Below are positions 43,136 through 64,000 of a DNA stretch of 64,000 nucleotides, one piece after another. Origin of the DNA: an uncultured cyanobacterium (GTDB lineage: Bacteria; Cyanobacteriota; Cyanobacteriia; Cyanobacteriales; CAWCAG01); NCBI GenBank assembly GCA_963793425.1, contig CAWCAG010000006.1:1-64000 (forward strand), in the 5' to 3' direction. Numbering within the stretch: position 1 is the first letter of the stretch; the number at the start of each line of letters is the position of its first letter. The position numbers and the translations under genes were made by a program. Below the pieces are notes generated by a model that saw only the letters and a program-made list of their open reading frames with translations, searched no databases and was not told the origin of the DNA.

Positions 43136-44504
43136 CGGGACTTAAACAGAAAAAGAGAATAAAGAAGATATAATAGTTATATGGCATAACTTCAACGTTA
43201 GAGTTATCGGTGGTGAATCTTATGAAAGAAACAACCCCAGCAGCAATGCCTCCATGCTTCAATAGATGGTGCGCTAAGTTTGATAATATATTCAGAACAA
43301 AAGCTCAAAAGAGAGAATTTAGAAACTATATAGGAGGATTATTAGGCGAAAGTAAGCGTAAAAACCTTACACAGATAGCTAGAGACAGTGTAGGAGTAAC
43401 ATACCACAGATTACACCATTTCTTAACCGAAGCCCCCTGGTCAGCAGAGCAAATAAATGAGCGTCGTTTGCAAATAATGAACAAATGCAATCAGACGAGT
43501 ATAAACAGTGGATTCAGTCTGATTGTTGACGATAGTGGACACCCGAAGAGCGGCAATTTTACAGCAGGAGTAGGAAGACAGTATATCGGAGAAGAAGGAA
43601 AAGTAGATAATGGTAATGTCGTAGTAACAACTCACCTTTATGACGGCAAGAAAAGCTGACCTTTAGACATTGAATTATATCAACATGCCAAATCATTACC
43701 CCAAGGAAAAAAAGACCCAGAATTCAAAAAGAAACCTCAGTTAGCTATAGAGCTAATAGATAGAAGTATTGAGAGAGGGTATCGACCCAAAATAGTTCTC
43801 ATAGATGGAGGATATGGCAACAATACATCATTTTTAGGAGCATTAGAACAAAGGAAATTAAACTACTTAGGAGGAGTAGCCAAAAACCGTAAAGTTAGAG
43901 TGCTAAAAAGCGATAAAACCACAGAAGAGGTCAGATTAGATAATCTAGCGCAATCACTACCAGCAGAGGCTTTTAGGGAAATAACCATCAACACAATTAA
44001 GCCAAGAAAAGTGTGGGTAGCAACACAAGTAGTAGAAATATCTAGTCTCGAAGGTAGAAAAACAATAGCTATCGTTATGAATGCTTCTACCTTTGAAGAT
44101 GCCGATGATATTGATTATTTAATCACTAATGTTTCCCCAGATTTAGCAACACCACAATGGTTTGTAGATACATACTCAAAAAGAAATTGGGTAGAAGTAT
44201 TTTATAGAGAAGCTAAGGGATGGCTAGGTTTGAAAGAATATCAAGTCAGGGATAAAAGAAGCCTGATGAGACATTTTGTCCTAGTTTTTTGTGCCTATAC
44301 TTTTATTATTTATCATAAGCTAACCGGAGGTTTGAGAAGACGTTGGGCAAACAAACCTTTGAATACATTTACTGAAGCTTTAGAAGCCTTTCGTACAGGT
44401 GTATCTTATCGTTTTATAGCTTGGCTCAATAATAACCATGACGTATTTACTCGCCACAAAGAGAGTTTAGGCTTTATTTGGGCTTGATTTCTGTTTAAGT
44501 CCCG
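43136..44504 (+). mobile_element. IS701-family element; transposase broken by an in-frame TGA at 43657
   Basis: TIRs CGGGACTTAAACAGAAA / TTTCTGTTTAAGTCCCG; IVDDSGHPKSG, GRQYIG; reading frame continues PLDIELYQH after the stop. Confidence 0.9.
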
Positions 44505-44511
44505 ATAAGTC

Positions 44512-44802
44512 TCACGGGGTGACAAGTATCTTAAAGCCAAGTCAGTTAAGGTTTCTAGCTCACCGACTTTCAAAAAGATTAGAGTTTATTGATAGGTCTG
44601 TTGACACCTAGATAGCACTCAAGATGGTAACAGTTGAGTAGCTTACGATTTGTACTATTCAGGTAATTTTATCCGTAGTGATCGCATATCAGATTCCCTA
44701 ATTTTATAGTCAATAAGCGTGTCAATGAGCATCAATTTTTCGGAGGGTCAAATAGCTGGAAGATTTGTGTGAATAGCTTTCTAATCCCCTGTCACCCCGT
44801 GA
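44512..44802. mobile_element. MITE-like or deleted IS remnant
   Basis: Inverted ends TCACGGGGTGACA / TGTCACCCCGTGA; the same end occurs at 12441. Confidence 0.6.
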
Positions 44803-45303
44803 ACTGATAAGTTAAAACGTATTTATATTGGATTGAGAGAGTTACCCTGAAAGTAGCTCAAAACTTGTTAAAGCAAGCGGGTAACTTACCTGCGCTGACG
44901 CTATGGGTACAGACGTAGGCTTCCGAGTTGCCCATAATTGATAACAAACTTTTCAAAGTTCTAATGCGATCGCCATAAAGGAGCAATAGAGAGGCTGATC
45001 ATTGAACAGCTTAACGAAGTAGAACATTTTTCTCTTCGTTATGACGACTCTGCTGGAGTTTTACTAAAAAAAGTTTTAAAAAGGAAGTATTGGTTTAGTA
45101 ATAAGCCTTGTTGGGCTGAGGATCAATTCGCCTTCTTAACCCATATGGATATTTCTGCTATATCTGTAACTGTAAGCGTTAATACGAAAAATCCTGATGA
45201 ATTATTTAGAGCAGATTTTCATGTAAGCTAAAAAAAAGAATAGCGAAATCGTTACTTCGCTATTATGTAAAGCAAAACAGAGATGACCCTCTCAAGCAGG
45301 CGT

Positions 45304-45630
45304 TTACTCTTCCTCTTTGCAATATTCTTTCATCTGATGAGTCAATTCTACTTCCGTTGGATCTATTTTTACCTGCTTCAGAGCATTCCAGCTAAACTTA
45401 GCTAATTCCTCGATTGAATCAGCAAAATACGTTGTTCCCCCTTCTGAAGTTGTCGTTGGGAATGTATAAGGAGGTTCTAGATCCTTTAGATGTTCCCGTA
45501 CTCTTTTTTCATATGCTTTGTAGTTTGCATAGCTGTATATCTGTGTTTCTTGGGTTGGTAGAGGTTCTTCTAAAGTAGCCTTCTTCCAGTGTTTGAGTCG
45601 CTTCAATCTTTTGGCTTCTTGCTTATTCAC
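45304..45630 (-). CDS. Hypothetical protein
   Basis: ORF with GAGGAGG RBS upstream. Confidence 0.55.
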   Translation of the reverse strand: MNKQEAKRLKRLKHWKKATLEEPLPTQETQIYSYANYKAYEKRVREHLKDLEPPYTFPTTTSEGGTTYFADSIEELAKFSWNALKQVKIDPTEVELTHQMKEYCKEEE

Positions 45631-46404
45631 TTGTAAAACCTCCTCAAATTATTATGGTTTCAGACCAGAATCTCTATCTCTCGAATTATTTTCCTGTTCC
45701 TGTATGTAGGCAGAGAGTTTAAAGGAAAACCCAGAAGCTGGCAACAACTTCCAGGCTTCATTACAGTTCAAATCCAAGCTTTTCTGTACTTGGTCTGTTA
45801 TTGCTTGGGTTTCTTTTTCTCTAGCTTATACGACTCTAAACAGTCAGGGAAAAAATCATTCATATCATAGAGTTTGAAAGCATCCGCTAGTTGCTTAAAG
45901 GTACTGTATTTCGTCCATAGGGCTTCGTAGGAAACTATTTCTTGGACTGGACTTATGGCGTTGGCGAAGCTGATTCCTCCACTATTCATAGCTTTTTTCA
46001 CCTCTTCATCAATAGCTTCTGTGTTTGAGTCTAGCAGGAGTACTGAAAATTAACCGATACGTTCATAAATTTTGGCATCCGTTGCGATCGCTAAACTCCC
46101 AAACAGAACCATCTTTGCCAGTTACCTTAGCACCAACTTTTTTCACCCGATCAGTTTGACTTATTCTCTTTCGTCTATTAGTCGCGAGAATCATTCTTCT
46201 TTAGACTAATTTTTCCACTTACTCCTGAGAAATAACACTTGTCTTCCTTTATTTGCTCACTTTCAGGCCTGCTAAGCCAGAGTTCCTTTTTTTGTAAAGG
46301 AATGTTGCAACAAGAGGGCATACTAGAACAAAACCTGTTTTCATTACTACCGATAGGTTTATGATGTACTGGCGAACCCTTCGCTACTAGCAGCTTCCTT
46401 TGTT

Positions 46405-46981
46405 ATGTCTGAAAAGCCAAAAAAGTCGGAACTTTCTGAATTTCGGGATTTTACGATTCCTAACTTGTGTAATACCCTACAGGGGGCTAGCTATCAACAT
46501 GAAATTGGCAACCATGATTTAGCTGAGTTTTTTCTCAGGCAAGCTCAAGATAAACTGAACATATGTATTGAGCAGAACCAAAAAGATAAGCAAGCAAAGG
46601 AGGGAATTAAAGATGACACTCCAAACCAATAGCTTCACTATTTGCGCCCATGATGGTCTGTGTAATGTGATGAGTGACTCTCGTTTAACTCAAGAGAAAC
46701 TCATGAAGTTTTTGGAGTTTGTCTTTGAGGTTTACGCTCCTGTGGTGATTATTTCCCAGCCCTGGGAATCTAGTCAATATTCTTATATTTTGGCTCAGCG
46801 TACTCAGATTGTATCGACAGAAAGTTTACTGAATATTCTCAGCAGAGAGGAGATGGGCTGGCATTTGAGTGAAAATATCCTTTACTCTCCACGTCCAAGT
46901 AAGCTCAGACCTCCTCGCTTAGAACAAGCCATAGCAGCAGCACGCCGTAAGGCTTTGGTAAGTACTAAGGTTAAGGTGTAG
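46405..46981 (+). CDS. Two small overlapping hypothetical proteins (46405-46632 and ~46613-46981)
   Basis: Coupled ORFs; GGAGGG RBS before the second ATG. Confidence 0.45.
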
Positions 46982-47059
46982 GGACTTCAACCCACAGCCT
47001 AATCAATGGGTAAGTGAAGCTAGCCGTAGGCATGGCACATCCAAAACAGAGTAAAAAAG

Positions 47060-47187
47060 GGCGTTGGTAATTGAACGTATGATTTACAAAGTTTTTTTGT
47101 TCGCAGCTATTAGCTATTAGCTTTTTGGGAGCTAATAGCTAGTTAAACATCATGTGGGAGCGAACCATACCTGTATCTACCAACGCC
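47060..47187 (+). mobile_element. ISL3-like MITE with internal heptamer repeats
   Basis: TIRs GGCGTTGGTA / TACCAACGCC, 8-bp TSD TAAAAAAG; related copies at 61285-61413 and ~770-846. Confidence 0.8.
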
Positions 47188-47439
47188 TAAAAAAGAAGTA
47201 GTCCCTAGCTGAGGCGATCGCGCAACTTGTAACAGGACATGATTACTCTACTCCCTATTTGTGAAAATTCTCACGAAGTTAGACAATAAAGCCAGCATGA
47301 ATTCCTGAAGTAACTTTCATGGTAGAGAATTTGTTGGGGGAACAAGAACAGGGGAGTCTAAGGTTAAGGACACCTCTTCCTTTAGCTTGTCACCCAGCAG
47401 AAGTTTATTTAGATAGTTTGGCTCCTGGGTCTGTGTCCA

Positions 47440-47706
47440 GTGGTCAAGGGAGGAAAAATTGTCATTCGCCACATGAGTGCTGATGCGGTGGGTAAGACTT
47501 TAAAAAGGTTGGGCAAGAAAGCTGGGTTAGCTTCTTTTTCTGCCCATGATTTTCGGAGGACATTTTGTTCTGAGTTGTTAGATTTGGGCGCAGATATAGT
47601 AACGGTGCAGAAGCTAGCAGATCATGCTTCTCCTGCTACTACAGCGATTTACGACCGTCGGGGGGAAGAAGTGAAACGTTCTGCAATTCGGAAAATGAAG
47701 TTTTAG
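47440..47706 (+). pseudogene. Tyrosine recombinase C-terminal fragment
   Basis: AHDFRRTF...LADHASPATTAIYD. Confidence 0.8.
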
Positions 47707-47870
47707 AGGGTATCTAGTAGTTTGTCAATTTTCAATTGACGGGTAAGGGGAAAAAATTATTGGATTTTCTGTTATTCAGCTTGGCAAAAAAGTCAAGTTC
47801 GTTTTGACCTAACTTTTTTTCTGAATAGCTCCTAAGCTAGGGATAAGGCAAAATCTACAGTTTTGAAATC

Positions 47871-47965
47871 CCTAAATTGGTCTTGTTGGAAACCAGATGC
47901 CGACAATTGCAATTCCGCCGAGGATAGCAGGTTCACCAATTACCTAAATTGGTCTTGTTGGAAAC
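47871..47965 (+). CRISPR. Mini-array: truncated repeat, one spacer, one full repeat
   Basis: 3' 23 nt of the repeat at 47871-47893, 36-nt spacer, full repeat at 47930-47965. Confidence 0.9.
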
Positions 47966-47985
47966 CCTTAACAGTTTACAGACAT

Positions 47986-48016
47986 AAAAAAGGTTAGAGC
48001 CTTAAGCCCTAACCTT
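47986..48016 (-). terminator. Intrinsic terminator (possibly bidirectional)
   Basis: Minus strand AAGGTTAGGGC-TTAAG-GCTCTAACCTT followed by a T-run. Confidence 0.7.
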
Positions 48017-48071
48017 CAAGTTTTGCTAACACAAGGGCAAAACAAAAAGCTACTAAAATCAGTAAACTCTA

Positions 48072-48108
48072 GTTTCCAACAAGACCGATTAAAGCTAATC
48101 GGTGAAGC
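48072..48108 (-). CRISPR. Solitary divergent repeat, opposite orientation to the arrays
   Basis: GCTTCACCGATTAGCTTTAATCGGTCTTGTTGGAAAC: 3' end identical to the array repeat, stem changes compensatory. Confidence 0.85.
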
Positions 48109-48246
48109 AAGTACTACACCAGACTTGAATTAATCAAAAAAAAGCTTTTTCAGTAATTCCTTAATCTAGTGCAGAACTTATGTATAACTGTAAAAGAAAC
48201 AAACTGAGCAAAACAGGTCAAAATGACCTTGATTTTTTCTCTCTAG

Positions 48247-48567
48247 TTATTTACCTGCTCTTTGCTTTTCTTGACAAAGAATCTCTAAAAGCTCATCAGG
48301 AATCTCTTCAAAATGCTCAAGCAGAAAATCCATGAACGCTAAATTCTTTAAATCATGGGGTTGGGGACGACGATAATGATGATTCCTTTTAAACCATCTT
48401 TGTACAGTAGAGTAGGAACGAGAACAAATTTGAGCTATCTGTTCATAACTAACTGACCACTTCAAATAAAACTTTTGGGGAGATAAACCCAACTCACAAT
48501 TAGCATAAAGCCTGATTAAATCTAACTCCCGTTTACCTAAAGAATCTGACATAACATTACTCCACAA
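48247..48567 (-). CDS. HTH domain protein
   Basis: WSVSYEQIAQICSRSYSTVQRWF. Confidence 0.75.
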   Translation of the reverse strand: MWSNVMSDSLGKRELDLIRLYANCELGLSPQKFYLKWSVSYEQIAQICSRSYSTVQRWFKRNHHYRRPQPHDLKNLAFMDFLLEHFEEIPDELLEILCQEKQRAGK

Positions 48568-48862
48568 CTACTTCTAAATCTTCTTCCCAAGCAACATCAA
48601 ACTTACACCAGGAATAGCTAAAAGAACTGCTATCTAAAAGAATTAAATAACACCAACTTCCACTTTTGAGATGTCTGGAATAACTGTAAAAAACTCCTGC
48701 AACCATTCCCCAATCAAAACAATCGTCAAGGGGAAACCAGCGTACCTTAACCCCGTAGGTAAACTTGGGTTTTTTGACTTGTGACCAGTCAATATTTGTC
48801 AGTGGTTGCAATTTTGCTAAAGGTAGTAACTGAACCACTGATGGGGTATTTTGTCCCAGCAT
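48557..48862 (-). CDS. Hypothetical protein (SH3/KOW-like beta domain)
   Basis: PKFTYGVKVRW...WGMVAG...WCYLILLD...AWEEDL; coupled to cas2 and the HTH gene. Confidence 0.6.
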   Translation of the reverse strand: MLGQNTPSVVQLLPLAKLQPLTNIDWSQVKKPKFTYGVKVRWFPLDDCFDWGMVAGVFYSYSRHLKSGSWCYLILLDSSSFSYSWCKFDVAWEEDLEVVVE

Positions 48863-48873
48863 ATCCTCTCCTA

Positions 48874-49173
48874 TTAAGCGAAAAAAACTTCATCATCAAT
48901 GGCATAATCTGGTTTAAGCCCCAGAACGGTAACTTTATGGCGACAAGGTTTAGAAAGGGGATAGAATCTCAACTGATCCTCCTTGGCATTTAATAACTTG
49001 CTGAGCCTGGGTAGTAACTTTTCGTACTGACGTGTATTCAAAACCAGTTCAAACACAGACTTTTGCACTCGCAAACCGTAAGCTTCCAATAATTTGGATA
49101 CCCTAGTACGGCGACGGTCATCTACAATGTCGTAGCAAACTAAGTAAAACATTAGATAAGTGATAGGTGACAA
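48874..49173 (-). CDS. cas2: Cas2
   Basis: YLVCYDIVDDRRR...YGLRVQKSVFE...DQLRFYPL. Confidence 0.95.
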   Translation of the reverse strand: MSPITYLMFYLVCYDIVDDRRRTRVSKLLEAYGLRVQKSVFELVLNTRQYEKLLPRLSKLLNAKEDQLRFYPLSKPCRHKVTVLGLKPDYAIDDEVFFA

Positions 49174-49295
49174 GCATTGGTGACAAGTTAAGCTGTTATT
49201 CCATTGGTCAACTGTTTAGTCTTACGACAAGGCTAGCCTGCGGCAACGCTACGCGAAACGCGAATAGCTCTTAGCTTTTTTGTTCTGAATTCCTG

Positions 49296-50043
49296 TTAAC
49301 AGTCAAGAAAATTGGCGTGGCATAACATGGGACGATAGAATTCTCTGATGCCCATAATGCAAGCTAAGTACTCTTTGACCTGTAACTCAATACAATGACG
49401 ATAGGTCACTTCTCCTGTTCGTAGATGCTTAATGGGACTATCTAATTTTGCTTCCCAGGCTTTAATGAATTTCCGCAAAGGTAGGGGGTAGAGATGAATT
49501 TCTCCTTCTTCATCAGGCGAAGTAAAATTAGAGTAATTAATAATGCGATCGCTAACCAATTGAAGGACGAAAGAATCAACTAAGACTGCCCCTAACTCCA
49601 GCATCAAATTTTTCTACAGAAGATAGTGTTTGTCTTGATTCTTTCTTACTGTTACCTACTGCCTGTTGCCTCTTGCTTGCTTCTCCAAGCAGTCCCTTGA
49701 GTAAATGAGAGCGATTATGACAACTAGCCCTTAAAAGACTTTCAGTTGTTTCCCAAGTAAACTCTGAATTCTGGCAGCATTGTAACTGCTTTTGCTGATG
49801 CTTGATAGCAGTTTGCCCAGAACTATAATAGGGCTTTTCTTGTTCGAGGAAGAGTAGAGAAATATTGAGCGAACGCACTAACTTGAGAGCTTCTTGAGAA
49901 ATATTCGTGTAGCCAAAGATAATGATTTCTTCGACTTTGGTAATAGCTACTTGGTAGGAAAAACTACGTGTAGGGAAAACATGAAAGTTCGTTTGGTCAG
50001 CCTTTAATAAGGCTCCCGGTTCGGGAATATAGAGAGTAGTCAT
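49296..50043 (-). pseudogene. cas1: Second cas1 lacking the catalytic core, split into two ORFs
   Basis: N-part MTTLYIPEPGALL and C-part VDSFV...YRHCIELQVKEYLAC...YRPM align with the Cas1 moiety of the RT-Cas1; the GYEG/RRPP/H segment is absent. Confidence 0.8.
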
Positions 50044-50362
50044 GTTCTAAAAAGATAAACAAGTAATAAGTAAAAGCCAGTATTTCTCCAGATAACTTGT
50101 TAGTTATTTCTGGGGTTGAACTTTTAACTTGCTTCCATCTTTTCAGTAGCTATATGAGTACTTGTATGAGTAAAAATAGAAAAGTATGAGTTGATATATG
50201 AGTTTTATATGACTTAAAAAAAGCTAGAGAATTAATCTCTAGCTGGAGCGCTATTATCTTTGGGCTTTTAGCCGTTTGAGCATTTTTTTGCCCTTACTTC
50301 TGCTAATTCGGAAGCTGAGTTGACCGTTTTTGCTGCTACGTTGAACAACTTGAATAAAGCTT

Positions 50363-51337
50363 TCATCTAAAACAGGTTTGTTCCAGGATATTGAAGAATT
50401 GACCAAAACCTGCATCTAAACAATGTTTTCCTAGCATTCCTCTTGATAAACCAGTTAAGTTCAGATTCTCGACAAAGATCATCCCTACACCGTCACATAG
50501 TTGGTGTGATAGTTTTCTGTGCCAGTCTTTACGACAGTTAGCTATGTATTCATGTAGTTTGGCTACTTTCTTCTGGGCTTTTAACCAATTATTTGAGCCA
50601 ATACGCTTTCTACTGACGCGCTTTTGCAGTGATTTCAACTTGCGTTGGGCGTTAATAAAAAACTTCGGGCGCTTGATTAAAAGACCATTGCTAGTAGCTA
50701 CCATTGATAGTAGTCCTACATCTATGCCTATTGCTTCTCCGTGTGCTTTATGTTGTGGTGGCTCTACGTTCCATTGAATGGTTAGCATTACATACCAACC
50801 TGAGATACGCTTGAGTATACGTGCTTGTTTAATTTTCCCTCCTTGAGGTATTTGACGAGAGGAGCGATATTTTACCCAACCTATTTTAGGTAGGTTAATT
50901 TTGTTGTCCTTTATCTTTTCGTTTTTGATTTGAGGAAAGACAAAGGAGCGTATACGCCCAGCTTTTTTGAATCTGGGAAAGCCGTGATTTCTCTCCCACA
51001 TTGAGACGAAGGCTACTTCTATACGTTTTAAGGTTTGCTGCAATACTTGAGAGTGGACTTTTTTTAATTCAGGGTATTCTTTTTTGGCAGCAGTTAATGA
51101 TTTACATTGAGAGGCATAAGTTGGCCTTGGTGTTTCTGTGGGGATGATGTAGCACTTGTGAAGGCTGCAAGAGTTAATCGAACAGCTACGAGATTTGTAC
51201 CAATCTTTGCGTTGTGCTAGGGCGTAGTTATAGACGCGACGATTGATTTCTAACCAGTTTTCAAAGATGTTGGTTTGTTCTTTGTTTGGTTTTAGTTTAT
51301 ATTCGTAGGTCAGGTTAAGCATTCTCTTCACCTCCAA
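50363..51337 (-). mobile_element. tnpB: IS200/IS605 TnpB, C-terminally truncated
   Basis: LTYEYKLKP, GFPRFKK, IGIDVGL, FVENLN; stops before the zinc finger and RuvC-III; end hairpin at ~51399-51439. Confidence 0.85.
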
Positions 51338-51759
51338 CGATTAAGTATACACTTATTGTCTGACACCTCAAGAGTTTGACAAAATAATCAGCTTTGCTGC
51401 CGCTACATCCCCATAAATAGAATTTAGGGGCTTTGCGGCAACTTTCGGTAAACGACTTAAAGCACATAATTGGGCTTTAGTAATCCCAGGTTGAGTTGCG
51501 ATCGCTAGGAAAAGGATTTTCCTAACTCCGGAAAGAGGTTTCCGCAAAGGGTAATCCTGCTGCAACAACACTTTCATAGTTACAGGGGGTGTATGACTAT
51601 CTATATGAGAAAATTTCGCTGACTAAATACGCTCCAAGCTTATAGCAAAGTTCAATCGTTTGAGAGCAACTCATACAACCCCTCCTGAAAAGTCATATAA
51701 GTACTCATATAGCCCCTGAAAAGATGAAATAGAAGTAAATTACAGGGGAGATTTGATTA

Positions 51760-53733
51760 GTGCAAATTGAACCAATAGAACTAATAACGGCTTGGCAACA
51801 AGTGCGTAATCGTAGTCCGGCAGCAGGGGTAGATGGTATTACCCTAGATTTGTTTGCAGGGGTAGCAAAGGAACAACTAAGAACTCTAAAACGAGAACTG
51901 GAACGGGAATACTATCAAGCCAGTCCTGCCAAGGGTTTCTATTTGAAGAAAAAGAGTGGAGGTCAACGTTTAATTGGTATTCCTACAGTACGCGATCGCG
52001 TGGTACAAAGATTGACCCTCCAATCAATTTACCCCACCTTAGAAACAGAATTTCCCGCCCATAGTTATGGCTACCGTCCAGGGCATTCTGTACAAATGGC
52101 CATAGAACATTTCTCTGAATATTACCGAGAAAGACCAACTTGGGTAATTAAAGCAGATATAGCTCAGTTCTTCGATAGCCTTATTTGGGCCATTTTGCTG
52201 GAAAGTCTGGAAGATATTGCTGTAGAGCAGTTTTGGGGACAGCTTATTGCTGGGCAATTACAGGCGGGAATTAAGTTGCAAGGGCAGTGGTTTAACCCTG
52301 GTAAAGGGGTATTGCAAGGAGGCATTTTATCAGGTGCTTTAGCAAACCTTTACCTGAGTGAGTTTGACCGTTACTGTGCTGATTTTGGTATCCAAATTGT
52401 TCGTTATGGGGATGATTTTGTCATTGCCACTGGGGGTTTATTAGAGGCTACGAGGATTTTAGCCCAAGTGAGTCAGTGGTTGGAGGATATCTACTTAACC
52501 CTACAACCAGAGAAAACCCACATTTTTGCTCCTAACGAGGAATTTGTTTTCCTTGGTTATAAATTTCAGGCTGGAGAAATTATTCCCCCTCCTTCCAAAA
52601 GCCGTAGTACTTCAAGGAAACCCAAACAAAAGCCAGCACCAGAATCTAGACCACCAAAAGCTTGTAGCATTCTCAAACCTTATTCCTACCACCATCAAGT
52701 TGACAGAGATTTTTACTGGAGCGACTCTATGACTACTCTTTATGTGACCGAACAGGGAGCCTATCTCAAGGTACGACACCAACAGTTTCAGGTTTTCTAC
52801 CACCGGGAATTACGCATCACTGTTCCTGTGAATCGGGTGAGCCATATTGTTCTGTTTGGTTGTTGTAATCTTTCCCACGGAGCAGTGCAACTGGCCTTAA
52901 AAAGACGTATTCCGGTAATGTATCTTTCTCATCAAGGGCGTTACTTTGGCCGTTTGCAAACCGATGGCATGGCAGAAATTGATTACCTCCTGCTGCAAAT
53001 GCAGCGTCACCAAGAGCCAGCCTTTCAACGTCGTCAGGCAGAAGCCATAGTTATGGCCAAACTACACAATTCCCGCAAGCTTCTACTACGGATGAACCGG
53101 AGCAAAAAGATTACTAAGGTGAACAAATCCGTTAATAAGATTGCCCAGATTATTGATAAGCTACCTTCAGCCAAATCGGTTGAGAGTTTGTTAGGTTACG
53201 AAGGGCAGAGCGCTCATTTATACTACCAAGCCTTGGGAGTACTTTTTAATGGCAAGTTTACTTTTGAAAAGCGTACCCGTCGTCCTCCTACCGACCCCAT
53301 TAATAGTATGCTCAGTTTGGGTTATACTCTGTTGCACCAAAATGTTTTTTCTTTGGTACAAGCAGTAGGTTTACACACCCATTTTGGTAATCTCCATACC
53401 CCCCGCCGTAATCATCCGGCTTTGGTTTCTGATTTAATCGAGGAGTTTCGCGCTCCAGTGGTGGATTCTTTTATTGCTTATTTGGTTAATTCCAAGATTT
53501 TTAAGCAAGGGGATTTTACTCCGGCAGATCCAAGGGGTGGGGTTTATCTTCATCCTAGTTCTTTGCGGAAGTATCTTAAACACTGGCAGGAGAAGTTACA
53601 GACTCAAGTTACCCATCCCCATACAGGTTATAAGGTAAGTTATTATCGTTGTTTGGAGTTACAGGTATGGGAGTATATTGCTTGTTTGAAGGGAGAGCAG
53701 GAGGTTTATCGACCAATGATGTGGAATATTTAG
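51760..53733 (+). CDS. cas1: RT-Cas1 fusion
   Basis: AAGVDG, GIPTVRDR, LQGGILS, RYGDDF; then MTTLYV, LGYEG, RRPPTDPINSMLSLGY, GNLH, DLIEEFR. Confidence 0.95.
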   Translation: MQIEPIELITAWQQVRNRSPAAGVDGITLDLFAGVAKEQLRTLKRELEREYYQASPAKGFYLKKKSGGQRLIGIPTVRDRVVQRLTLQSIYPTLETEFPAHSYGYRPGHSVQMAIEHFSEYYRERPTWVIKADIAQFFDSLIWAILLESLEDIAVEQFWGQLIAGQLQAGIKLQGQWFNPGKGVLQGGILSGALANLYLSEFDRYCADFGIQIVRYGDDFVIATGGLLEATRILAQVSQWLEDIYLTLQPEKTHIFAPNEEFVFLGYKFQAGEIIPPPSKSRSTSRKPKQKPAPESRPPKACSILKPYSYHHQVDRDFYWSDSMTTLYVTEQGAYLKVRHQQFQVFYHRELRITVPVNRVSHIVLFGCCNLSHGAVQLALKRRIPVMYLSHQGRYFGRLQTDGMAEIDYLLLQMQRHQEPAFQRRQAEAIVMAKLHNSRKLLLRMNRSKKITKVNKSVNKIAQIIDKLPSAKSVESLLGYEGQSAHLYYQALGVLFNGKFTFEKRTRRPPTDPINSMLSLGYTLLHQNVFSLVQAVGLHTHFGNLHTPRRNHPALVSDLIEEFRAPVVDSFIAYLVNSKIFKQGDFTPADPRGGVYLHPSSLRKYLKHWQEKLQTQVTHPHTGYKVSYYRCLELQVWEYIACLKGEQEVYRPMMWNI

Positions 53734-53919
53734 AATATCCAAGATGTTGTAGCTTTTAGCTCAGGGAGAAAATAGAAGGGGCAAAAAGTCAATATCATAA
53801 TGACATGGTTTTGACCCTGAATAGCTGCTAAGGTAGTGAGCAAAGATTTTTCACTTTTCGTAATCGCTCTATTTCTTGCTATTACTGAGTTTCAACCTGA
53901 TTTTTTGTCCTTTTATTTA

Positions 53920-54108
53920 GGGGGGTCAAGGAATGGCTGAAATGTCCATTCTTTCGTTGACCCCCACAAATAGCCTTCTGAGTAAGAGTTCTAGCTGTTA
54001 TGAGGTGGCATTTACTGCTAATTATTATCAATTATTTGAGGGGTGAGTTGACCCCCCTAAATTTGATGGTTTATAATGACCTCATACCAAAGCTTTCATA
54101 AGCCGAGG
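53920..54108 (+). promoter_or_regulatory. CRISPR leader 1
   Basis: Highly similar to 59245-59436 upstream of array 2. Confidence 0.75.
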
Positions 54109-54582
54109 GGTTCACCAATTACCTAAATTGGTCTTGTTGGAAACGATCCAGCTTCAACAGTACCTAACAAGGTACTAAAGGCGTTGGTTCACCAATTACC
54201 TAAATTGGTCTTGTTGGAAACATTTCCAAACTGTTCTAAACTGTATTGTTTAGAATCGGTTCACCAATTACCTAAATTGGTCTTGTTGGAAACAAATGTA
54301 ACTTGATGAGCTACTTCTTCATCAGAAGGTTCACCAATTACCTAAATTGGTCTTGTTGGAAACATTGGTTCTGAAGAACAGGCAATTGAGAAATGGTAGG
54401 GTTCACCAATTACCTAAATTGGTCTTGTTGGAAACTTCAGTCTTTTAGCCGTTGCTAGAGTTCCAGACTAAAGGTTCACCAATTACCTAAATTGGTCTTG
54501 TTGGAAACTAAAATCCCTATCTTCATTGTGGCTGCCACATACAGGGGGTTCACCAATTACCTAAATTGGTCTTGTTGGAAAC
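54109..54582 (+). CRISPR. CRISPR array 1: 7 repeats, 6 spacers
   Basis: 36-nt repeat GGTTCACCAATTACCTAAATTGGTCTTGTTGGAAAC; spacers 34-41 nt. Confidence 0.98.
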
Positions 54583-54644
54583 ACATTTCCTGATAAGGTG
54601 GGCATTGCCTGCCTTATTTATTTTTCCAGCAACAAAAAAGCCTC

Positions 54645-55061
54645 ATGCCAGCCAGAGACACATATCACAACAAAGCCAAAAACGCATTGCTTGTTGATGG
54701 GTGGACAATCACCCACGACCCTTTGAGACTTGAGTGTGGGAACAAAGACTTTTATGTAGACTTGGGAGCTATGAAACTGATAGCAGCAGAAAAAGAAGAA
54801 AGGAAAATTGCTGTTGAAATTAAAAGTTTTGTCGGAAAATCTGATATTGAAGAATTAGAAAAAGCTTTGGGTCAATATGTCTTGTATTATGATGTTTTAG
54901 CAGAGCTAGAACCTGAACGTATCTTATATGTAGCAATTCCCCAAAGAACTTATCGAGACTTATTTGAAGAAAAAATTGGTAAACTACTCCTCAAAAATCA
55001 ACGTGTTAAACTTATAGTATTTGATGAGAATCAAGAGAGCATTGTCCAATGGGTAGTATGA
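54645..55061 (+). CDS. xisH: XisH family protein
   Basis: MPARDTYH...GWTITHDPL...AVEIKSF...ALGQY. Confidence 0.92.
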   Translation: MPARDTYHNKAKNALLVDGWTITHDPLRLECGNKDFYVDLGAMKLIAAEKEERKIAVEIKSFVGKSDIEELEKALGQYVLYYDVLAELEPERILYVAIPQRTYRDLFEEKIGKLLLKNQRVKLIVFDENQESIVQWVV

Positions 55062-55423
55062 GCTTAGAACAAACCCAACAAATTATCGAAACAATACTCA
55101 CTGAATATGCACAAATTCCCTACGCCTATCGTGATATTCAAACAGAAACCATTTTCGATAAAACCAATGGCCGCTACTTACTAGTAAATATGGGTTGGGA
55201 GGAAAATAAGAGGATTTATAGCACTCTTGTCCACATTGATATCATTGATGGCAAAATTTGGATTCAAAGGGATGGAACCGAAGATGGTATAGCCGAAGAC
55301 TTAGAAAGAGCAGGAGTTCCTAAAACTAGGATTATACTGGGTTTCCGTCCACCAGAAGTTAGGAAATATAGCGGCTATGGTACAGGAGTTGAAAATACAA
55401 GGGAGCCTGTAACCCTAAGTTAG
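55049..55423 (+). CDS. xisI: XisI family protein
   Basis: HIDIIDGKIWIQRDGTEDGIA...ILGFRPPEVR. Confidence 0.92.
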   Translation: MGSMSLEQTQQIIETILTEYAQIPYAYRDIQTETIFDKTNGRYLLVNMGWEENKRIYSTLVHIDIIDGKIWIQRDGTEDGIAEDLERAGVPKTRIILGFRPPEVRKYSGYGTGVENTREPVTLS

Positions 55424-55502
55424 CTTTGAGTATAGCCTGCGCCCTATAAATTAAGATAAAATCAAAAATAATACCCCCAAACTATCAACTGTCTTAACTC
55501 AA

Positions 55503-58500
55503 ATGGCACGGTCGCTAAAAGCAACGAGTAAAGGAATCGAACGAGCCAAAGGAGCCTTGACAGAGAGGGGATTAACTCAAACAGCCTTAGTCAAAGAGTT
55601 AGAAATAGCTTCCTGGTCAACCATCAACAAATTCTTTAATGGCAAAGCTGTAGACCGAGGAATTTTCATCACAATTTGCGAAACCTTGGGTAAGGATTGG
55701 GAAGAAATCGCTACAGAAAAGCCCTTACAGTCGAATGAAGAAATAATTGAAAAAACTAAACTACTTCCTCAACCTTACTCTTCTAACCACAAAAATCTCA
55801 AGCAGAAAATAGATGACTACAGCATAGCTGCTAGAGAAGCTCTTAACCCTCGTATCTTAACCAGAATCGAACGCCCAGTAGTTCGGGAAAAATACCTCAG
55901 AGCTATTCAAAGGGGACTGAGGGGACAACAGCGTATTGTACCGATTATTGGCCCTGCTGGTTATGGTAAAAGCACTATCCTGGGTAATCTCTACGACTTA
56001 CTTAAAAACAACCTTCCCCAGCAATCAATTTCTCCTGGTTGGCTAATTCTTAGCTTATGTAATAGTCTCGATCTCAATATAGCCTCTTCCTCAGAAAATT
56101 AGCTCGTAGTTGGGGAGAAAGTGTAAGTGGTCAGAACAACTCGTTATTAGAAATTGTCACCCAACTAACAGCAGAGTATGGCAAAGGAGTTCTACTCATT
56201 GATACCATTGACTTAGTAGTTAGTCGCTCCTTCGTCAATGGCTTTGGGGGATTGCTACGCCAGTTATTAGAACAAGATGTCACCGTAGTCTTTACCTGCC
56301 GTGACCATGAATACAATGATTTCCTAGAACCAACTCGAACTAAACTACCAGGTATAGCCTCTGCCATAGAACGCCATTTCGTCCCCGAATTTAGCCCTGC
56401 TGAAGTTAAGCAAGCTGCTAGCATCTTTGTAAAGAAACAAACTCACAACCTAAGCGACCACCAAGCTGACTTTGCCGAAAAAATCCTCACCCTCTCTGCT
56501 GATAGTCGCTCTCTCAAAGAGATTGTTTGCAATCCTTTGCTTTTGGCCTTGTTGTGTGACCTCTTTGCTAAAGATGGAAACGTCCCTCCGGATCTCACTG
56601 TTAGCAAACTGTACCAACGCTACTGGGAAGAAAAAATAGTTTACAGTCGCTTTGACGACAGCCACTCATCATTACTGGCTTTGCAAAAAGAGAAAATCTG
56701 CCTTGATATTGCACAGGCTTTGTTTGCTATGTCGGTAAACAAGCTTTGTGAAGCAGCTTACTTAGATGAATTAGGGCTAGAACTAACTGAAACAACTGCT
56801 ACTGCCTATGATGATTTGCTTAGTGAAGGAGTTTTGGAAAAGTTACCTTCTCAAAAAATTCACTTTTTCCACCAGACACTATTAGAATATGCGATCGCTT
56901 ACTGGTTAACTCGTCATAGCTCTCAATCCCAACGTCAACAGCTACTTGCTACTCTTAAAGACAAAGAAAACTCCCATCAATATCATCATTGGTGGGCTGT
57001 CATTCGTCAACACTTGACTCTTGTAGAAGACCGAGAGTTTGAATCTTTACAGCAACAACTAAACTTAAATGACTTAGCTGCATTCGGTGCAGTAGCTTTT
57101 GCGGCTGCATCCCGTGAGCGCTCAGTAGCTTTAGCTAAACTCCTACCTACTGCTTTGGAGTTGGGCGCAGTCCATCAGAAAAGATTGCGTCAAGCCTTAG
57201 AGTCTGCCCCTCGACAGTTAACGGAAGAGGTTTGGCAAGTTGTCCTTGCTCTTTTAGAGAAAAGTAGCCACACCGTTGCTGTCAACACAGCTAAAACCGT
57301 AGGAGCATTGCTAGCCCAATGGTGGCAATCTTTTGGTAGTCACTGGGGTGAAGCCCTTGCTGCTATTGCTAGCAGAAAAATTGAAACGGTAGGTAAAAGA
57401 AACTTTGATGGGCGTTCAGAACTTTCTGGTTGGTTACTTCAACCCTGCTTACCTTTAATGAGTTCAGAACTCCAAGAAGAAGCACCACTTCATAGAAGAG
57501 AGCAGATATTACAGACAAAGCGGAGCAAGGAACTTTTAAATACTTTGAGACAATACTATCAGTATTTTGGTCAAAGAACTTGTATTGAAGTATTACAACT
57601 CTATCAATTACCTGTAGTTCCCAAAGACTTACAGAGAAAGTTCCTGCCTCAATTGCTTGCAGAAGCAGTACCTCAGAATAAAAAGTTGGAGGCAGAGCTA
57701 ACTAATTTTGTAGCGATTGTTCTACCCCAAGAAATCACTGTTACTGATTCACTTTTGGGAAATTCCTGGCTAGAAGTTCTTCATCGTGAGTATCCACTTA
57801 AAGTCAATATTGTCGTTGCTCTGGCTATAGGACGTAATGCGGCAAGAGAGCCGAAAATTCTACAGGAGATAATGACTGATAGTTTGGTTGGTGAACCCTA
57901 TCATACTGGTCAAAACAATGCGGCCCTGACAGAAGCTTTACGTCAAGGGGCTGAAAATTTCTTTACTCGTTTCCTAATTACTCAACCCCAAGAAAAGGTG
58001 TTTCCCCAACGTTTGAGTGCTATGGTTAGTTTGCTCAATCACACTTCTAACTATTTCTCGCCAGCAAACCAAGAATCATTGATTCAGTGGTTACAACCTG
58101 TAGCAGAAAAGCATCTAGAAAAGTTTGTACCCCTTTTAGAAGACTGGGGTGATTCGTGCAAAACCGCTCAGCAGATTTTACAACAAGGTATTACTAGGTT
58201 GCCTGCTGTAAAGCAAAAAAAATATCAAGGTGCAGTTATTCGGTTTCTACCTTTGCAAGAACACCCTCCCCTCAACAACTTAGATAAAAAATCTCAGTTT
58301 TCTTTAGTGAAATTTTATCAACAACGGGCATCTACTTCTGTGGTTGCTCTAAACCAGCTATTTTTAGCAGTTAGAAGTAACTCCAAAAATGTTGCTATTA
58401 CTGCTTCTTGTGAGTTAGACCAAGTAGCTGGAGACAATCTAAAAGTAGCTCAGCTTTTACCTTTACTTAACTCTTCTTTAGCTGGAGTACGAAATAATAT

Positions 58501-59101
58501 CTTTCAAGCTTTGCTTAATCTAAGTGAGGGTGGAGCAACTTTAACTGAAGAGCAGGTTATCGAAGTTTGTCAAATCCTCAAACAAGAAGATAACCAAGTA
58601 GTAGCTCGTCCTTTCTATCAATTGATAGCCTGTTGGACTTGGACTCATAAATCTGTACCTGATACTCTTTTAAAAACTATTGGTGCTATCCCACCTCGTT
58701 TAAGGGCTAAAGGGACTTTTGAAGGGGGAGTCACTAGAACAATCATTATTGCTTTCAGAGCGATCGCTAATACCCAAGCTCCTAATTTGATGCCTCACTT
58801 AGGTTTGTGGACTCGTCAGATTTTGCTCTCAATTGATTTGATTCGTGTGCAAAACTCTGGCTCAGAAATGACGGATTTTTTGGTAGCTTTAGACCGTTTA
58901 GATAAAGCTTTTCTTTCTCAATTAGTCACTGAAGATGTAGCCAAGTTAGCCTCTCAAGATTGGCAGCATAATGTGATAACTATTGTTCGAGCGATTTATA
59001 GGGTAGAAAGTCAGAGTTCTCCTTTACTAGCTGAAATTTTAGCAAGTGAATGGTGTCCTCTAGTAGTGCAAAATGCAATTTTGGAGATGTTAGGAGCTTG
59101 A
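55503..59101 (+). pseudogene. HTH-STAND/NACHT NTPase with helical-repeat C-terminus, frameshifted at ~56098
   Basis: N-terminal HTH (MARSLKAT...STINKFFNGK), Walker A GPAGYGKS; Walker B VLLIDTID lies in the other frame before the 56252 ORF; NPLLLALL, FFHQTLLEY. Confidence 0.8.
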
Positions 59102-59244
59102 GAATTGAAAAAAGTCAAGTTCGTTTTGACCTAACTTTTTTCCTAAATAGCTCCTAAACTGGAGATGAGACAAAAATGACGGTTTTGAAATTGTCCAATA
59201 TCCTGCTAAATCTAGCTTTTAGCTTAAAAAATTCCTTGCAAATC

Positions 59245-59436
59245 TGTGGGGGTCAGGGAATCGCTGAGAACCCTCATTCTTTCGTTGACCCCCACAAATC
59301 TTCTTCTGGGTAAGAGTTCTAGTTATTATGAGGTGATATTTGTTGGGAAGTGTTCTCAATTATTTGGGGGTAAATTTGACCCCCCTAAATTTGATGGTTT
59401 ATAATCTACTCATACCAAGGCTTTCATAAGCCAAGG
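59245..59436 (+). promoter_or_regulatory. CRISPR leader 2
   Basis: Paralogous to leader 1. Confidence 0.75.
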
Positions 59437-60038
59437 GGTTCACCAATTACCTAAATTGGTCTTGTTGGAAACAGAACAGCCTCTAATCCCAATAGTTAGC
59501 ATTAGCTAAAGACTGGTTCACCAATTACCTAAATTGGTCTTGTTGGAAACTGTCACTGTGCCGATTTCTCCAACAGCAATTTTGAGGTTCACCAATTACC
59601 TAAATTGGTCTTGTTGGAAACCTGGTGCAGCTCTATGTATGTTACTTTTCCATCTTGGTTCACCAATTACCTAAATTGGTCTTGTTGGAAACGTTCAGTC
59701 TTTTAGCCGTTGCTGTTCCAGACTAAAACAGGTTCACCAATTACCTAAATTGGTCTTGTTGGAAACTAGGCCATCCAGCCTGTCACCTTCGGAGAAGGCT
59801 TCGTGGTTCACCAATTACCTAAATTGGTCTTGTTGGAAACACTAACAGAGATAATTCTGAAGGGGGGATAGCTCTAAGGGTTCACCAATTACCTAAATTG
59901 GTCTTGTTGGAAACTTCCTTTTTCACATTTTCCCCCGCCATTCGAGGTGGTTCACCAATTACCTAAATTAGTTTTGTTGGAAATAGCAAAAACAGGCGCA
60001 ATGGGAGTTGCAACGATAGCCGGGTTGACCAATTACTT
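59437..60038 (+). CRISPR. CRISPR array 2: 8 repeats (last degenerate) plus a partial 9th, 8 spacers
   Basis: Same 36-nt repeat; degenerate copies at 59949 and 60023 mark the trailer end and confirm + orientation. Confidence 0.97.
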
Positions 60039-60042
60039 ATTC

Positions 60043-61248
60043 TCAATCAATAGTAGAAAAACGCTCAACCAAAGCCTGAGCCTTGCTTAACTGAAGTTTT
60101 ACCAAATCTGGTGGCGCAAGAAATTGAGCGCTATCCATATGCTTAAAAACCCAAAAACCAAATTCCTGGAAAGAACGAGGAGGTAAATTGAGTGAGTAAT
60201 CAATGTAGGGATATTCCTTTTGCTTATTCTTTTTAGGAGTACGAATCCTTTGAGAAGGGTGGCGACATTCTCCTTCTAAGATAAAATTAACAACCGGAGG
60301 AAAAAACCTGACCTTAACCTCTGTAAAAGATAAATTACCGCAACGCTCTAAATACTGCTCTTCCGGCTTACCCAAATATAAACCCCAACCAGTTTTCAAT
60401 AACTTTTGTGCAACCTTAAGACTAGCTTTTTGCTTTTCGATACCTCGTTGGGTTTGAGAAACAATTGGGCAGTAATTCTTGAAACGGTCTAAACGCCCTA
60501 TAGCTAGATGGTTAGTTTCCCCAGAATTGTAGAAGGGACTATCCTCCTCAAACAAAAGATACCAAGCAACATCATAATAAATTAACTGCAAAGGATAAAC
60601 TTGCTTTGAACCAACTTGACCACTTTGATAATGGTCAGCAAAACGATAAAGTTCTATCTTATTTCCTAATGCGATCGCTTCTTCAACCGTATCAAGACAT
60701 TCATAAAGAGTACCTTGATGATATTTACCCTTAGCTCTCTTCTCCTCTGAATCGGTGTAGATAATAGCCCGATTGAGGTAAGCCCTTATGGGGTAAAACA
60801 AATCTTCCCCTATAGATAAATCAAGCCCCCGCAAACGCTTCTCTAATGTGCGGTAACAAGCAACAATCTTAGAGTCTCTTTGATATTCAGCCTGAGAAGC
60901 CAAAGCATTAAAAGCTAACTTTAGTTCCTCTTGGCTAAGAGCGCCTGTTCCGAGATAATAACCCCAACGATACATTTTTTGCCTCAACAAACCGTAATCC
61001 CTCAAAGTTGCCAAGTCACTGGAAATAGTAGAAGCAGAAGGATAATCATCTGGTAGCTCGAAATTCAGAGTTTTAGCTAGCAACTGTAACTTATCTCGAA
61101 TCAGTGCTTTAGCATCATGTTCTCCTTTAGTACTCTTTTCTGTGGCAGTACCTACCCCAGGAAAGTTAGCCAGAGTAGCGATTAACAACATGATGCGTTG
61201 AAAAGATAACTCATCAGCATAGGGATGCAGCTTCGGTGGTTTAGCCAT
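60043..61248 (-). CDS. WYL domain transcriptional regulator
   Basis: wHTH (TISSDLATLRDYG), YPLQLIYYDVAWYLL, GRLDRF. Confidence 0.9.
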   Translation of the reverse strand: MAKPPKLHPYADELSFQRIMLLIATLANFPGVGTATEKSTKGEHDAKALIRDKLQLLAKTLNFELPDDYPSASTISSDLATLRDYGLLRQKMYRWGYYLGTGALSQEELKLAFNALASQAEYQRDSKIVACYRTLEKRLRGLDLSIGEDLFYPIRAYLNRAIIYTDSEEKRAKGKYHQGTLYECLDTVEEAIALGNKIELYRFADHYQSGQVGSKQVYPLQLIYYDVAWYLLFEEDSPFYNSGETNHLAIGRLDRFKNYCPIVSQTQRGIEKQKASLKVAQKLLKTGWGLYLGKPEEQYLERCGNLSFTEVKVRFFPPVVNFILEGECRHPSQRIRTPKKNKQKEYPYIDYSLNLPPRSFQEFGFWVFKHMDSAQFLAPPDLVKLQLSKAQALVERFSTID

Positions 61249-61284
61249 TGACTAATAGGTCGTTAATGTAGAGTTACTATAGGG

Positions 61285-61413
61285 GGCATTGGTAGATGCA
61301 GGTATGGTTGCTCCCATATTAAACTAGCTTTTTGGGAGCTAATAGCTAATAGCTAACAGCTAATAGCTGCGAACAGAAAAACTTTGCACATCATACGTTC
61401 AATTACCAACGCC
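61285..61413 (-). mobile_element. ISL3-like MITE in the WYL/cmr intergenic region
   Basis: Reverse-complement homologue of 47060-47187, flanked by the direct repeat GAGTTACTATAGGG. Confidence 0.8.
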
Positions 61414-61695
61414 GAGTTACTATAGGGTAGTCGAAAGTAAGAATGAAAAACAACTCAAAAGAAATCATTAACTTTAAGAAAATAAAAGAGCTTCCATGCA
61501 ATACTATATGAAGCTTTGAAGCAAAGATATTTTTAGGTCAATAATCTCTTTTCCCTTTATTTCATCTCTCTAGAAAAGTTATCGTATAAACATAGTCAGG
61601 AGGAGTCAAAGCAAAGCTGCATTGTGCGTCTAAGGAAACTCGTTAAGGCAAAGACATCGATAAATTCGGTCAACCGCCACAGCGAGGTACAACCA

Positions 61696-61947
61696 GTGAA
61701 CAGCACCCAGCAACGTCCCCGTCCCCAAGCTCAAACTCAGGCTTCCTGGAAAAAGCTGCGTCAGCAGTATGGAGGCTTCGCCATCAAAGCGGTGGTAATT
61801 GCCCTCACCAGTGGTATCTCTGCTTGCGGAGATAACCTGCTGCTCGATGTCGCCTTGCCAACCCTAGTGGGAATTGGCTTAGAGGCGGTCAACGAGAGAG
61901 ACAGCAGACGGGTAGAGGAACAGCTACGACGACTCCGGACTAAGTAG
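61696..61947 (+). CDS. Small hydrophobic protein upstream of cas10
   Basis: GAGGT RBS before GTG 61696; GC-rich ORF; G/C hairpin downstream. Confidence 0.5.
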   Translation: MNSTQQRPRPQAQTQASWKKLRQQYGGFAIKAVVIALTSGISACGDNLLLDVALPTLVGIGLEAVNERDSRRVEEQLRRLRTK

Positions 61948-62089
61948 GGAGACGGGGGAACCCCCCCTGTTTTCCTTGCTGTTGCCGTTACCAAAATAGG
62001 GCAGATGGAATAAGTAAATAAGCAATACAGAATTTCAGGGTTTGCAGCTTCGTTAGCCAACTTTTTAAATTTGGACTTTTAACTCAAAT

Positions 62090-63751: not shown

Positions 63752-63795
63752 CGTTGCTGATTTATGCCTGAATCAGAAAATGATACTGTCCGTAG

Positions 63796-64000
<205 letters not shown>

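Follow-up and report, generated by a model that had tools for sequence, protein, structure and literature searches.

The window analysed here (the whole stretch of 64,000 nt, positions 1 to 64,000 of contig CAWCAG010000006.1 of an uncultured cyanobacterium, assembly GCA_963793425.1) carries a variant CRISPR repeat that lies outside any array and closes the adaptation operon of a type III-B locus equipped with a reverse transcriptase (RT)-Cas1. Together with a fixed tail and a terminator the solitary repeat constitutes a unit which, with a probability of roughly one half, encodes a hard-wired, standalone RNA resembling a CRISPR RNA (crRNA). This RNA would be loaded into the Cmr complex, and the unit would represent a conserved part of the Cas6-less, III-Bv-like III-B/RT-Cas1 systems, a reading that derives from sequence comparison. 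The unit is composed of the following elements:

48108..48072, minus strand: solitary variant CRISPR repeat of 37 nt, with the 5' stem arm at 48103-48096, the loop at 48095-48092 and the 3' arm at 48091-48084.
48083-48072, minus strand: single-stranded 3' handle region of the solitary repeat.
48018..48071, minus strand: fixed tail of 54 nt between repeat and terminator (the "pseudo-spacer" region).
~48073-48052 and ~48043-48021, minus strand: predicted hairpins of the tail, the former weak and the latter of 7 bp and starting ~30 nt past the repeat.
47983..48017, minus strand: intrinsic terminator with a 13-bp stem (stem span 48017..47989) and a T run.

The 3' end of the solitary repeat is unchanged, as had been predicted, its last 15 nt being identical to those of the array repeat. 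This 15-mer is found 17 times in the window, of which 16 matches lie in plus-strand repeats and one is the solitary repeat itself, against 0.12 expected. Relative to the 36-nt repeat of the window's arrays the solitary repeat displays five substitutions and one inserted base, and one A-T stem pair has become G-C, again in agreement with the earlier description. A second array repeat form of the system, 37 nt long and present in at least 34 copies, is located outside the window (C6:70052-71140, C2 and C3) and aligns with the solitary repeat ungapped with seven mismatches, both sequences forming an 8-bp stem and a 4-nt loop. Four of these seven differences make up two compensatory pairs (A-T to G-C and T-A to A-T). 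Thus, the original prediction understated the case when it called the stem changes compensatory, whereas the stem extension that it also described holds only relative to the window's arrays, since the solitary repeat is nearer to the 37-nt form. Where some 55 nt and a terminator had been announced behind the repeat, the tail measures 54 nt and is followed by 13 pairs and a T run; this terminator also serves, back to back, the convergent array remnant of the plus strand. The whole unit displays four predicted hairpins (z = -4.1), and none of 200 shuffles folds equally well. A search of positions 44000-64000 against Rfam in E-value mode returned as its sole match a chance, sub-threshold microRNA family, and a scan of 47600-48700 for consensus sigma-70 promoters gave no site.

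The repeat stands alone in every collection searched. Allowing up to three mismatches it is a genome-wide single copy, with no same-strand repeat within 100 nt, whereas an array is defined by at least two repeats. A full array of the variant repeat, which the original prediction had named as the mark of a simple remnant, was found neither in the organism's own genome nor in genome_contigs (185,579 species genomes) nor in metagenome_contigs. Among 401 genomes of the order two contain a match to the variant repeat, the organism's own and that of a congener, both as single copies and with no array. Similarly, a metagenome scan with the 15-nt handle gave single chance matches and no arrays among the at least 119 matches listed.

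The unit recurs in related loci. The congener (G027) displays the same layout, with one copy of the solitary repeat carrying 1 mismatch. Identity with the window amounts to 89% in the helix-turn-helix (HTH) gene that precedes the repeat, 86% in the upstream spacer DNA, 36/37 in the repeat and 51/54 in the tail, while the adjacent array spacer is identical at 12/36 positions, which argues that the tail is inherited and not acquired. No homologous locus was found in the sister genus (G059). The HTH family comprises 65 homologues and 404 cyanobacterial loci. Eighty of these 404 and a second set obtained by Cas2 alignment were examined, 160 loci in all out of the 404 HTH loci and at least 580 Cas2 loci, and in 72 of the 80 HTH loci the open reading frame (ORF) orf101 is found beside the HTH gene (tblastn). 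Taken together, the two sets include 33 different loci with cas2 ahead of the HTH gene. The solitary repeat is intact in 17 of them, interrupted in the loop in one (L095), reduced to a vestige in two (L096 and L097) and not seen in 13, among which L013 offers just 197 nt of sequence. The interruption, in Scytonema (L095:5950-6067), is an insertion of ~95 nt, and in the two Nostoc vestiges (L096 ~4530-4570 and L097 ~4240-4285) nothing but the 5' flank and the first part of the tail is left, the arrays of these loci belonging to another family with a C-rich stem. All units lie on the same strand as the operon and close it, and in many relatives the solitary repeat begins right behind the stop codon of a small ORF. 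By an automatic criterion the element was scored in 15 of the 33 cas2-linked loci, whereas the 65 HTH loci that have no cas2 in range gave 0, a count in which L066 and L088, on the same contig, are both included, L013 is left out as too short, and L066, L088 and L087 are missed by the criterion, their stems having only 4 bp.

Carriers bear the names Symploca, Lusitaniella, Oscillatoria, Floridaenema, Argonema, Iningainema, Richelia, Rivularia, Nostoc, Halotia, Phormidium, Microcoleus and others. On plasmid pANACY.01 of Anabaena cylindrica PCC 7122 the order is RT-cas1, array, cas1, cas2, orf101, HTH gene, small ORF and solitary repeat with tail and terminator, and further on an inserted Rpn gene is followed by cmr2 through a large RAMP gene. 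The unit occupies ~157793-157895 of this plasmid. The window's own genome contains a paralogous system with its own HTH copy, palindrome and solitary repeat:

G000:C2:1060-4715, minus strand, with a duplicate at G000:C8:27652-31187: second RT-Cas1 system with another repeat family, its own leader and array, and an HTH paralogue 61% identical to that of the window.

The handle of this second solitary repeat equals that of the array of its own system at 16/16 nt, and its outer stem pair is changed on both sides. The C2 and C8 copies look identical (tblastn) and represent either an assembly duplicate or a real duplication.

The pattern of change in the repeat points to a maintained structure. In an alignment of 13 units (L010, L011, L108, L066 and L087 were left out for loop length or register and L100 as equal to L106, and L175 was not included), 92.3% of the cells are paired and five of the eight pairs display double changes. 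The covariation score is reached by 0 of 500 shuffles and slid controls are at most 50% paired. The last 14 nt of the units match the array of their own locus at a mean of 13.5/14 positions, against 10.7/14 for the arrays of other loci, a figure biased by the first detection of most units through their match to the end of their own array. The handle was therefore retested with 14 units from an array-independent scan and the unit of the window, using the 8 positions left free by the scan. Own arrays are matched at 112/120 positions against 85.4 under permutation, a value reached in 0 of 50,000 permutations, or 1 of 50,000 within one repeat family, shuffle and permutation figures alike being inflated by the non-independence of related genomes. 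For the 5' half of the repeat the result is mixed; in several Nostocales it is closer to the solitary repeats of other genomes (up to 21/22) than to the array of its own (12-14/22); in L015, L099 and L119 it is closer to the own array. Terminal array repeats lose stem pairing and handle without compensation and their trailers are unlike the tails, while the solitary repeat displays neither the uncompensated substitutions nor the loss of the handle by which a decayed remnant is recognised. The earlier argument for selection instead of decay is borne out, position, structure and handle being conserved across many cyanobacterial type III/RT-Cas1 loci, and the sequence evidence supports a solitary repeat under selection.

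The locus resembles, by analogy, the III-Bv type, whose crRNAs are matured by RNase E. The crRNAs of the III-Bv system of Synechocystis sp. PCC 6803 (CRISPR3) are matured by RNase E and RNase J. In the accessible text of PMC12464536, RNase E cuts behind the 5' stem-loop of the III-Bv repeat and leaves handles of 13-14 nt, and the crRNAs measure 42 and 48 nt with a guide part of 29-35 nt. The same source and PMC6546367 describe III-Bv as having no cas6 and a Cmr1-Cmr6 fusion. As far as these sources go, the present unit is alike in its 5' stem-loop and in the single-stranded 3' stretch that would furnish a handle (both from fold and covariation), in belonging to a locus where no cas6 was found and where a large, Cmr6-like RAMP gene gives weak matches, and in a spacing compatible with crRNA lengths of 42 and 48 nt. 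In 13 of 19 units a stable hairpin or terminator begins 24-38 nt past the repeat (~30 nt in the window), close to the guide length of III-Bv, which counts in favour of a crRNA-like RNA. In contrast to III-Bv crRNAs, the unit lies outside the array, its guide part is inherited and not acquired, and the repeat family of the window differs from that of the other loci. The HTH family was found on no Synechocystis plasmid of the plasmid collection, and Synechocystis arrays gave no match to a Nostoc array query.

From the anatomy of the unit we infer the following course of events. Transcription would either reach the unit as the last part of the cas1-cas2-orf101-HTH(-small ORF) operon or start at a promoter adjoining the palindrome described below. 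The hairpin of the repeat would be recognised by the host nuclease that matures the array crRNAs, RNase E in the studied III-Bv, and a cut in the single-stranded stretch behind the stem would yield an RNA with the 5' handle of its own system and a fixed, vertically inherited pseudo-spacer of ~30 nt, the 3' end being shielded by the hairpin or the terminator. Since no cas6 was found in the locus and III-Bv handles made by RNase E are 13-14 nt long, the processed RNA may start ~12-14 nt before the end of the repeat, and not at the 8-nt handle that the original prediction had in mind. Loaded into Cmr, the RNA would serve as a fixed guide with a regulatory or housekeeping purpose instead of immune memory. 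A crRNA-like RNA is favoured because both the hairpin and the complete handle are preserved, because the handle is situated downstream of the expected cut and is read by the effector, and because the spacing is array-like. The re-coded stem plausibly avoids recombination with the array repeats while keeping processing, because in the common gene order a recombination between solitary repeat and array would delete cas1-cas2-HTH.

The genes and arrays that surround the unit are as follows:

48247..48552, minus strand: HTH gene (101 aa, Pfam HTH_23), the last gene before the solitary repeat and a member of a conserved cyanobacterial family.
48557..48862, minus strand: orf101 (101 aa, no family), conserved partner 5' of the HTH gene.
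48874..49173, minus strand: cas2.
49296..50043, minus strand: cas1 without RT fusion, in two overlapping frames of 155 and 103 aa.
51760-53733, opposite (plus) strand: RT-Cas1, before array 1.
54109..54582, plus strand: CRISPR array 1, seven repeats of 36 nt, used as handle reference.
59437..59984, plus strand: CRISPR array 2, eight repeats, the last one decayed with uncompensated stem and handle changes.
47870..47965, plus strand: convergent array remnant (half repeat, one spacer, full repeat), ~100 nt from the solitary repeat.
62090, start: cmr2 (cas10).

The split cas1 of the window is shorter than that of the congener, which is unbroken and encodes 331 aa, and a TnpB gene of the IS200/IS605 type adjoins it (region 49296-51337, minus strand). 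The array remnant has no leader, a deletion having joined the upstream motif (47786-47869) straight to the 3' half of a repeat; at the same site the congener (L003) carries a full leader and three repeats with unrelated spacers. Past cmr2 there follow a 272-aa frame without a family, taken purely by position as cmr3, then cmr4, a small ORF where cmr5 would be expected and, with weak Cmr6/RAMP matches, an ORF of 563 aa. No Cas6 match was obtained among the scanned ORFs of contig C6. The genome's sole Cas6 is encoded on contig C9, where the adjacent arrays are of an unrelated repeat family, and may cross-process the repeats of this locus at a distance. Pfam gives no family for orf101 or for the small ORF. 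The set of orf101, HTH gene and often a small ORF, which is 55-80 aa long and contains a conserved tryptophan-cysteine motif, is widespread in cyanobacteria, often on conjugative plasmids and mostly away from cas genes (window 48247-48862 on the minus strand, L004-L083 and G000:C5:681774-682370). Between the arrays and cmr2 lie XisH/XisI genes, a gene for a 199-aa protein with a weak STAND-NTPase match, and ORFs of 949 and 401 aa without family matches (regions 54645-55423 and 55503-59101 on the plus strand and 60043-61248 on the minus strand); they are possible accessory genes of the system.

A palindrome with relatives before the arrays occupies the region upstream of the solitary repeat:

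48215..48229, minus strand: 6-3-6 palindromic motif, candidate operator or 3' untranslated region (3'-UTR) hairpin, just past the HTH stop codon and 107 nt before the solitary repeat.
47786-47813, 59108-59135 and, weaker, ~53784: related palindrome copies before the arrays.

The upstream motif of the original prediction is thus present. It is identical at 21/28 positions to the motif that precedes the arrays (47786 and 59108), which makes it the top non-identical match in the window, where 19/28 corresponds to chance level. The unit need not have a promoter of its own, the repeat lying right behind the small-ORF stop in many relatives. The same palindrome is found right behind the HTH gene in other genera (L011, L015, L019, L022, L027, L062, L066, L087 and L108); its half-sites are of the TCA/TGA type and L175 is also among the loci that carry it. 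Most of the Nostocales copies are followed by a terminator-like hairpin and the small ORF. Judged from its sequence and placement, the palindrome may be an operator bound by the HTH protein, which would in that case control both the arrays and the solitary RNA. Arrays 1 and 2 have leaders that are 86% alike over 209 nt, whereas in the 138 nt before the solitary repeat the palindrome is the only element common to the array regions, so that no leader is recognised there. Another short palindrome (940-956 and 47724-47740), part of a ~38-nt repeat (family D10), fits the loose palindrome pattern and seems to represent a dispersed repeat with no relation to the CRISPR motif.

Several observations weigh against a guide RNA loaded into Cmr. 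To the detection bias of the 14-nt handle figure and the inflated statistics mentioned above it has to be added that gene conversion with the arrays could keep the handle identical. The module of the window is partly decayed, with cas1 broken and the neighbouring array truncated, and 13 of the 33 cas2-linked loci show no unit. The tails are strongly structured according to their predicted fold, which is unusual for a guide, and their sequence differs between genera, except for a start motif of ~10 nt in Nostocales that persists even in both vestiges (L096 and L097). Lastly, no target for the tail was found in the host, the cas loci or phage collections. The tail has no match of 13 nt or more to the cas contig, and no recurrent target site emerged in 16 related loci, in the 26-kb locus of pANACY.01 or with the first 12 nt of the tail, which are conserved. 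The best non-self match to two Nostoc genomes has E = 0.01 and is not common to both, and IMG/VR contains 0 exact matches, other phage matches being at chance level and from unrelated hosts. Short pairing of the seed type may still occur.

Two candidate targets were set aside. The best host match, an 18-nt perfect complement (C5:2101814-2101831) in dnaE-C, was rejected since tail and gene do not covary in the congener, where 12 contiguous nt are left; the gene (C5:2101265-2102632, minus strand) encodes the C-terminal half of a split DnaE with the C-part of an intein, and the complement is taken as chance. A 10-11-nt complement of the handle/tail junction of the locus's own solitary RNA inside cmr2 (L103 ~8333, L104 ~7284 and L175:13442) is confined to three related Nostocales loci and, lying in a conserved coding motif, was judged weak.

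The main rival explanation, which we regard as unlikely, makes the repeat a cis-acting 3'-UTR element for the processing or stability of the adaptation/HTH operon. A cut in the repeat by the crRNA-processing host nuclease would remove the terminator and leave a protective 3' stem-loop, coupling the expression of cas1-cas2-HTH to the state of crRNA processing, and the tail would be functionless. Such an element readily accommodates a repeat that often follows the stop of the last ORF so closely that a promoter would not fit in between, a unit that invariably has the orientation of the operon and stands at its end, and tails that differ between genera and have yielded no target; moreover, PNPase is reported to halt at the III-Bv repeat stem-loop in the accessible text of PMC12464536. 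It leaves unexplained the last ~8 nt of the handle, which lie downstream of the cut and are not needed by a cleavage site yet follow the own arrays, and it provides no role for the regular spacing of ~30 nt to the next hairpin. A self-made decoy that titrates the nuclease or Cmr subunits, and so sets the level of free or assembled complex as a host counterpart of phage RNA anti-CRISPRs, appears improbable. A lone repeat with intact hairpin and handle and no detectable target would suit it, and phage solitary repeat units are reported to act by mimicry (PMC10651486, in its accessible part). Nevertheless, the unit is encoded within the cas locus of the host and passed on with it across many genera, with one copy per system and no sign of high dosage, and nothing in the present data separates a decoy from a guide with an undetected target.

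Two explanations remain. According to one, an array formerly stood behind cas1-cas2-...-HTH and the solitary repeat is its last, neutral remnant, seemingly conserved through ancestry and gene conversion. Arrays are indeed encountered there, since L021 displays a full leader and array directly past the small ORF, and L119, L011 and the C2 copy have leader and array a few hundred nt further; the broken cas1 and the truncated neighbouring array of the window agree with decay as well, and a survey judged type III standalone repeats to be degraded (PMC10120712, in its accessible part). The remnant is nonetheless very doubtful, as exactly one repeat is found every time in ~17 differently named taxa, the stem changes are compensatory, the handle is intact where true terminal repeats lose it, no array with the solitary stem occurs in any collection searched, and the unit has decayed in just those two loci that have arrays of another repeat family. 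The other explanation, which we consider the least credible, is an empty or seed array in which the single repeat offers Cas1-Cas2 an integration site for first spacers. The unit does lie downstream of cas1-cas2, the usual place of an array, but none of the loci examined has a unit that gained a second repeat, the conserved leader motifs of true arrays are absent and the 5' flank is coding in many loci, and a terminator follows at a fixed short distance.

CreA, CreR and crlRNA act as crRNA-like regulators in systems of types I and V-A, with Haloarcula CreTA, the Cas-regulating RNAs and the "mini-arrays" of Shmakov et al. 2023 as examples. The unit shares with them a repeat-derived RNA gene outside the array but within the cas locus, a fixed pseudo-spacer, a conserved position and a diverged repeat. 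In contrast, the effector here is the RNA-targeting III-B complex (Cmr), there the DNA-binding Cascade or Cas12a; the present unit has a single repeat, with no second, degenerate one, and a 3' end set by hairpin or terminator; a partial match to the promoter of a cas or toxin gene was not found; and the linkage is to the adaptation/HTH module and not to cas8, cas3 or cas12a. The regulatory role of the CreA/CreR kind put forward in the original prediction was not sustained, no complementarity to cas or host transcripts having held up, and because this defining test of a complementary target failed the unit is not filed as CreA or CreR. With RNA anti-CRISPRs (Racrs) of phages and plasmids, which are expressed as small RNAs, it has in common a single repeat unit with a preserved hairpin. 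Unlike the invader-encoded Racrs, it is encoded by the host locus, between cas2/HTH and array in two congeners and in many genera, is co-inherited with it and has a long structured tail, and nothing suggests inhibition; the anti-CRISPR role also entertained in the original prediction falls with this membership of the host cas locus. Degenerate terminal repeats and orphan type III mini-arrays resemble the unit in being repeat-like sequences outside a regular array, whereas here compensation, handle and position are all kept. A systematic survey found type III repeat-like elements to have no conserved position and no targets and concluded that they are degraded or non-functional (PMC10120712, in its accessible part), a verdict against which the present unit argues for type III standalone repeats. 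The literature searched, to the exclusion of the supplements of PMC10120712, does not describe a solitary repeat as a conserved element of III-Bv or cyanobacterial type III loci.

Standalone repeat RNAs turn the effectors of type I, II and V CRISPR systems into gene regulators and addiction guards. A tentative extension of the guide-RNA reading, for which we would claim less than even odds, is that of a core, inherited guide RNA, probably under a dedicated HTH regulator with sites before the arrays, which would program Cmr for a non-immune task; self-surveillance, control of adaptation or control of the effector are the tasks envisaged. If this extension is true, type III systems would have in the unit their first functional standalone crRNA-like RNA. 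The systems that contain the element acquire their spacers from RNA and rely on a housekeeping nuclease to mature their guides. The element offers an entry point to hard-wired guides of type III systems, to the coupling of adaptation and interference and to the roles of the orf101-HTH-small ORF genes, for which Anabaena cylindrica PCC 7122, with its plasmid pANACY.01, is a culturable and sequenced carrier.

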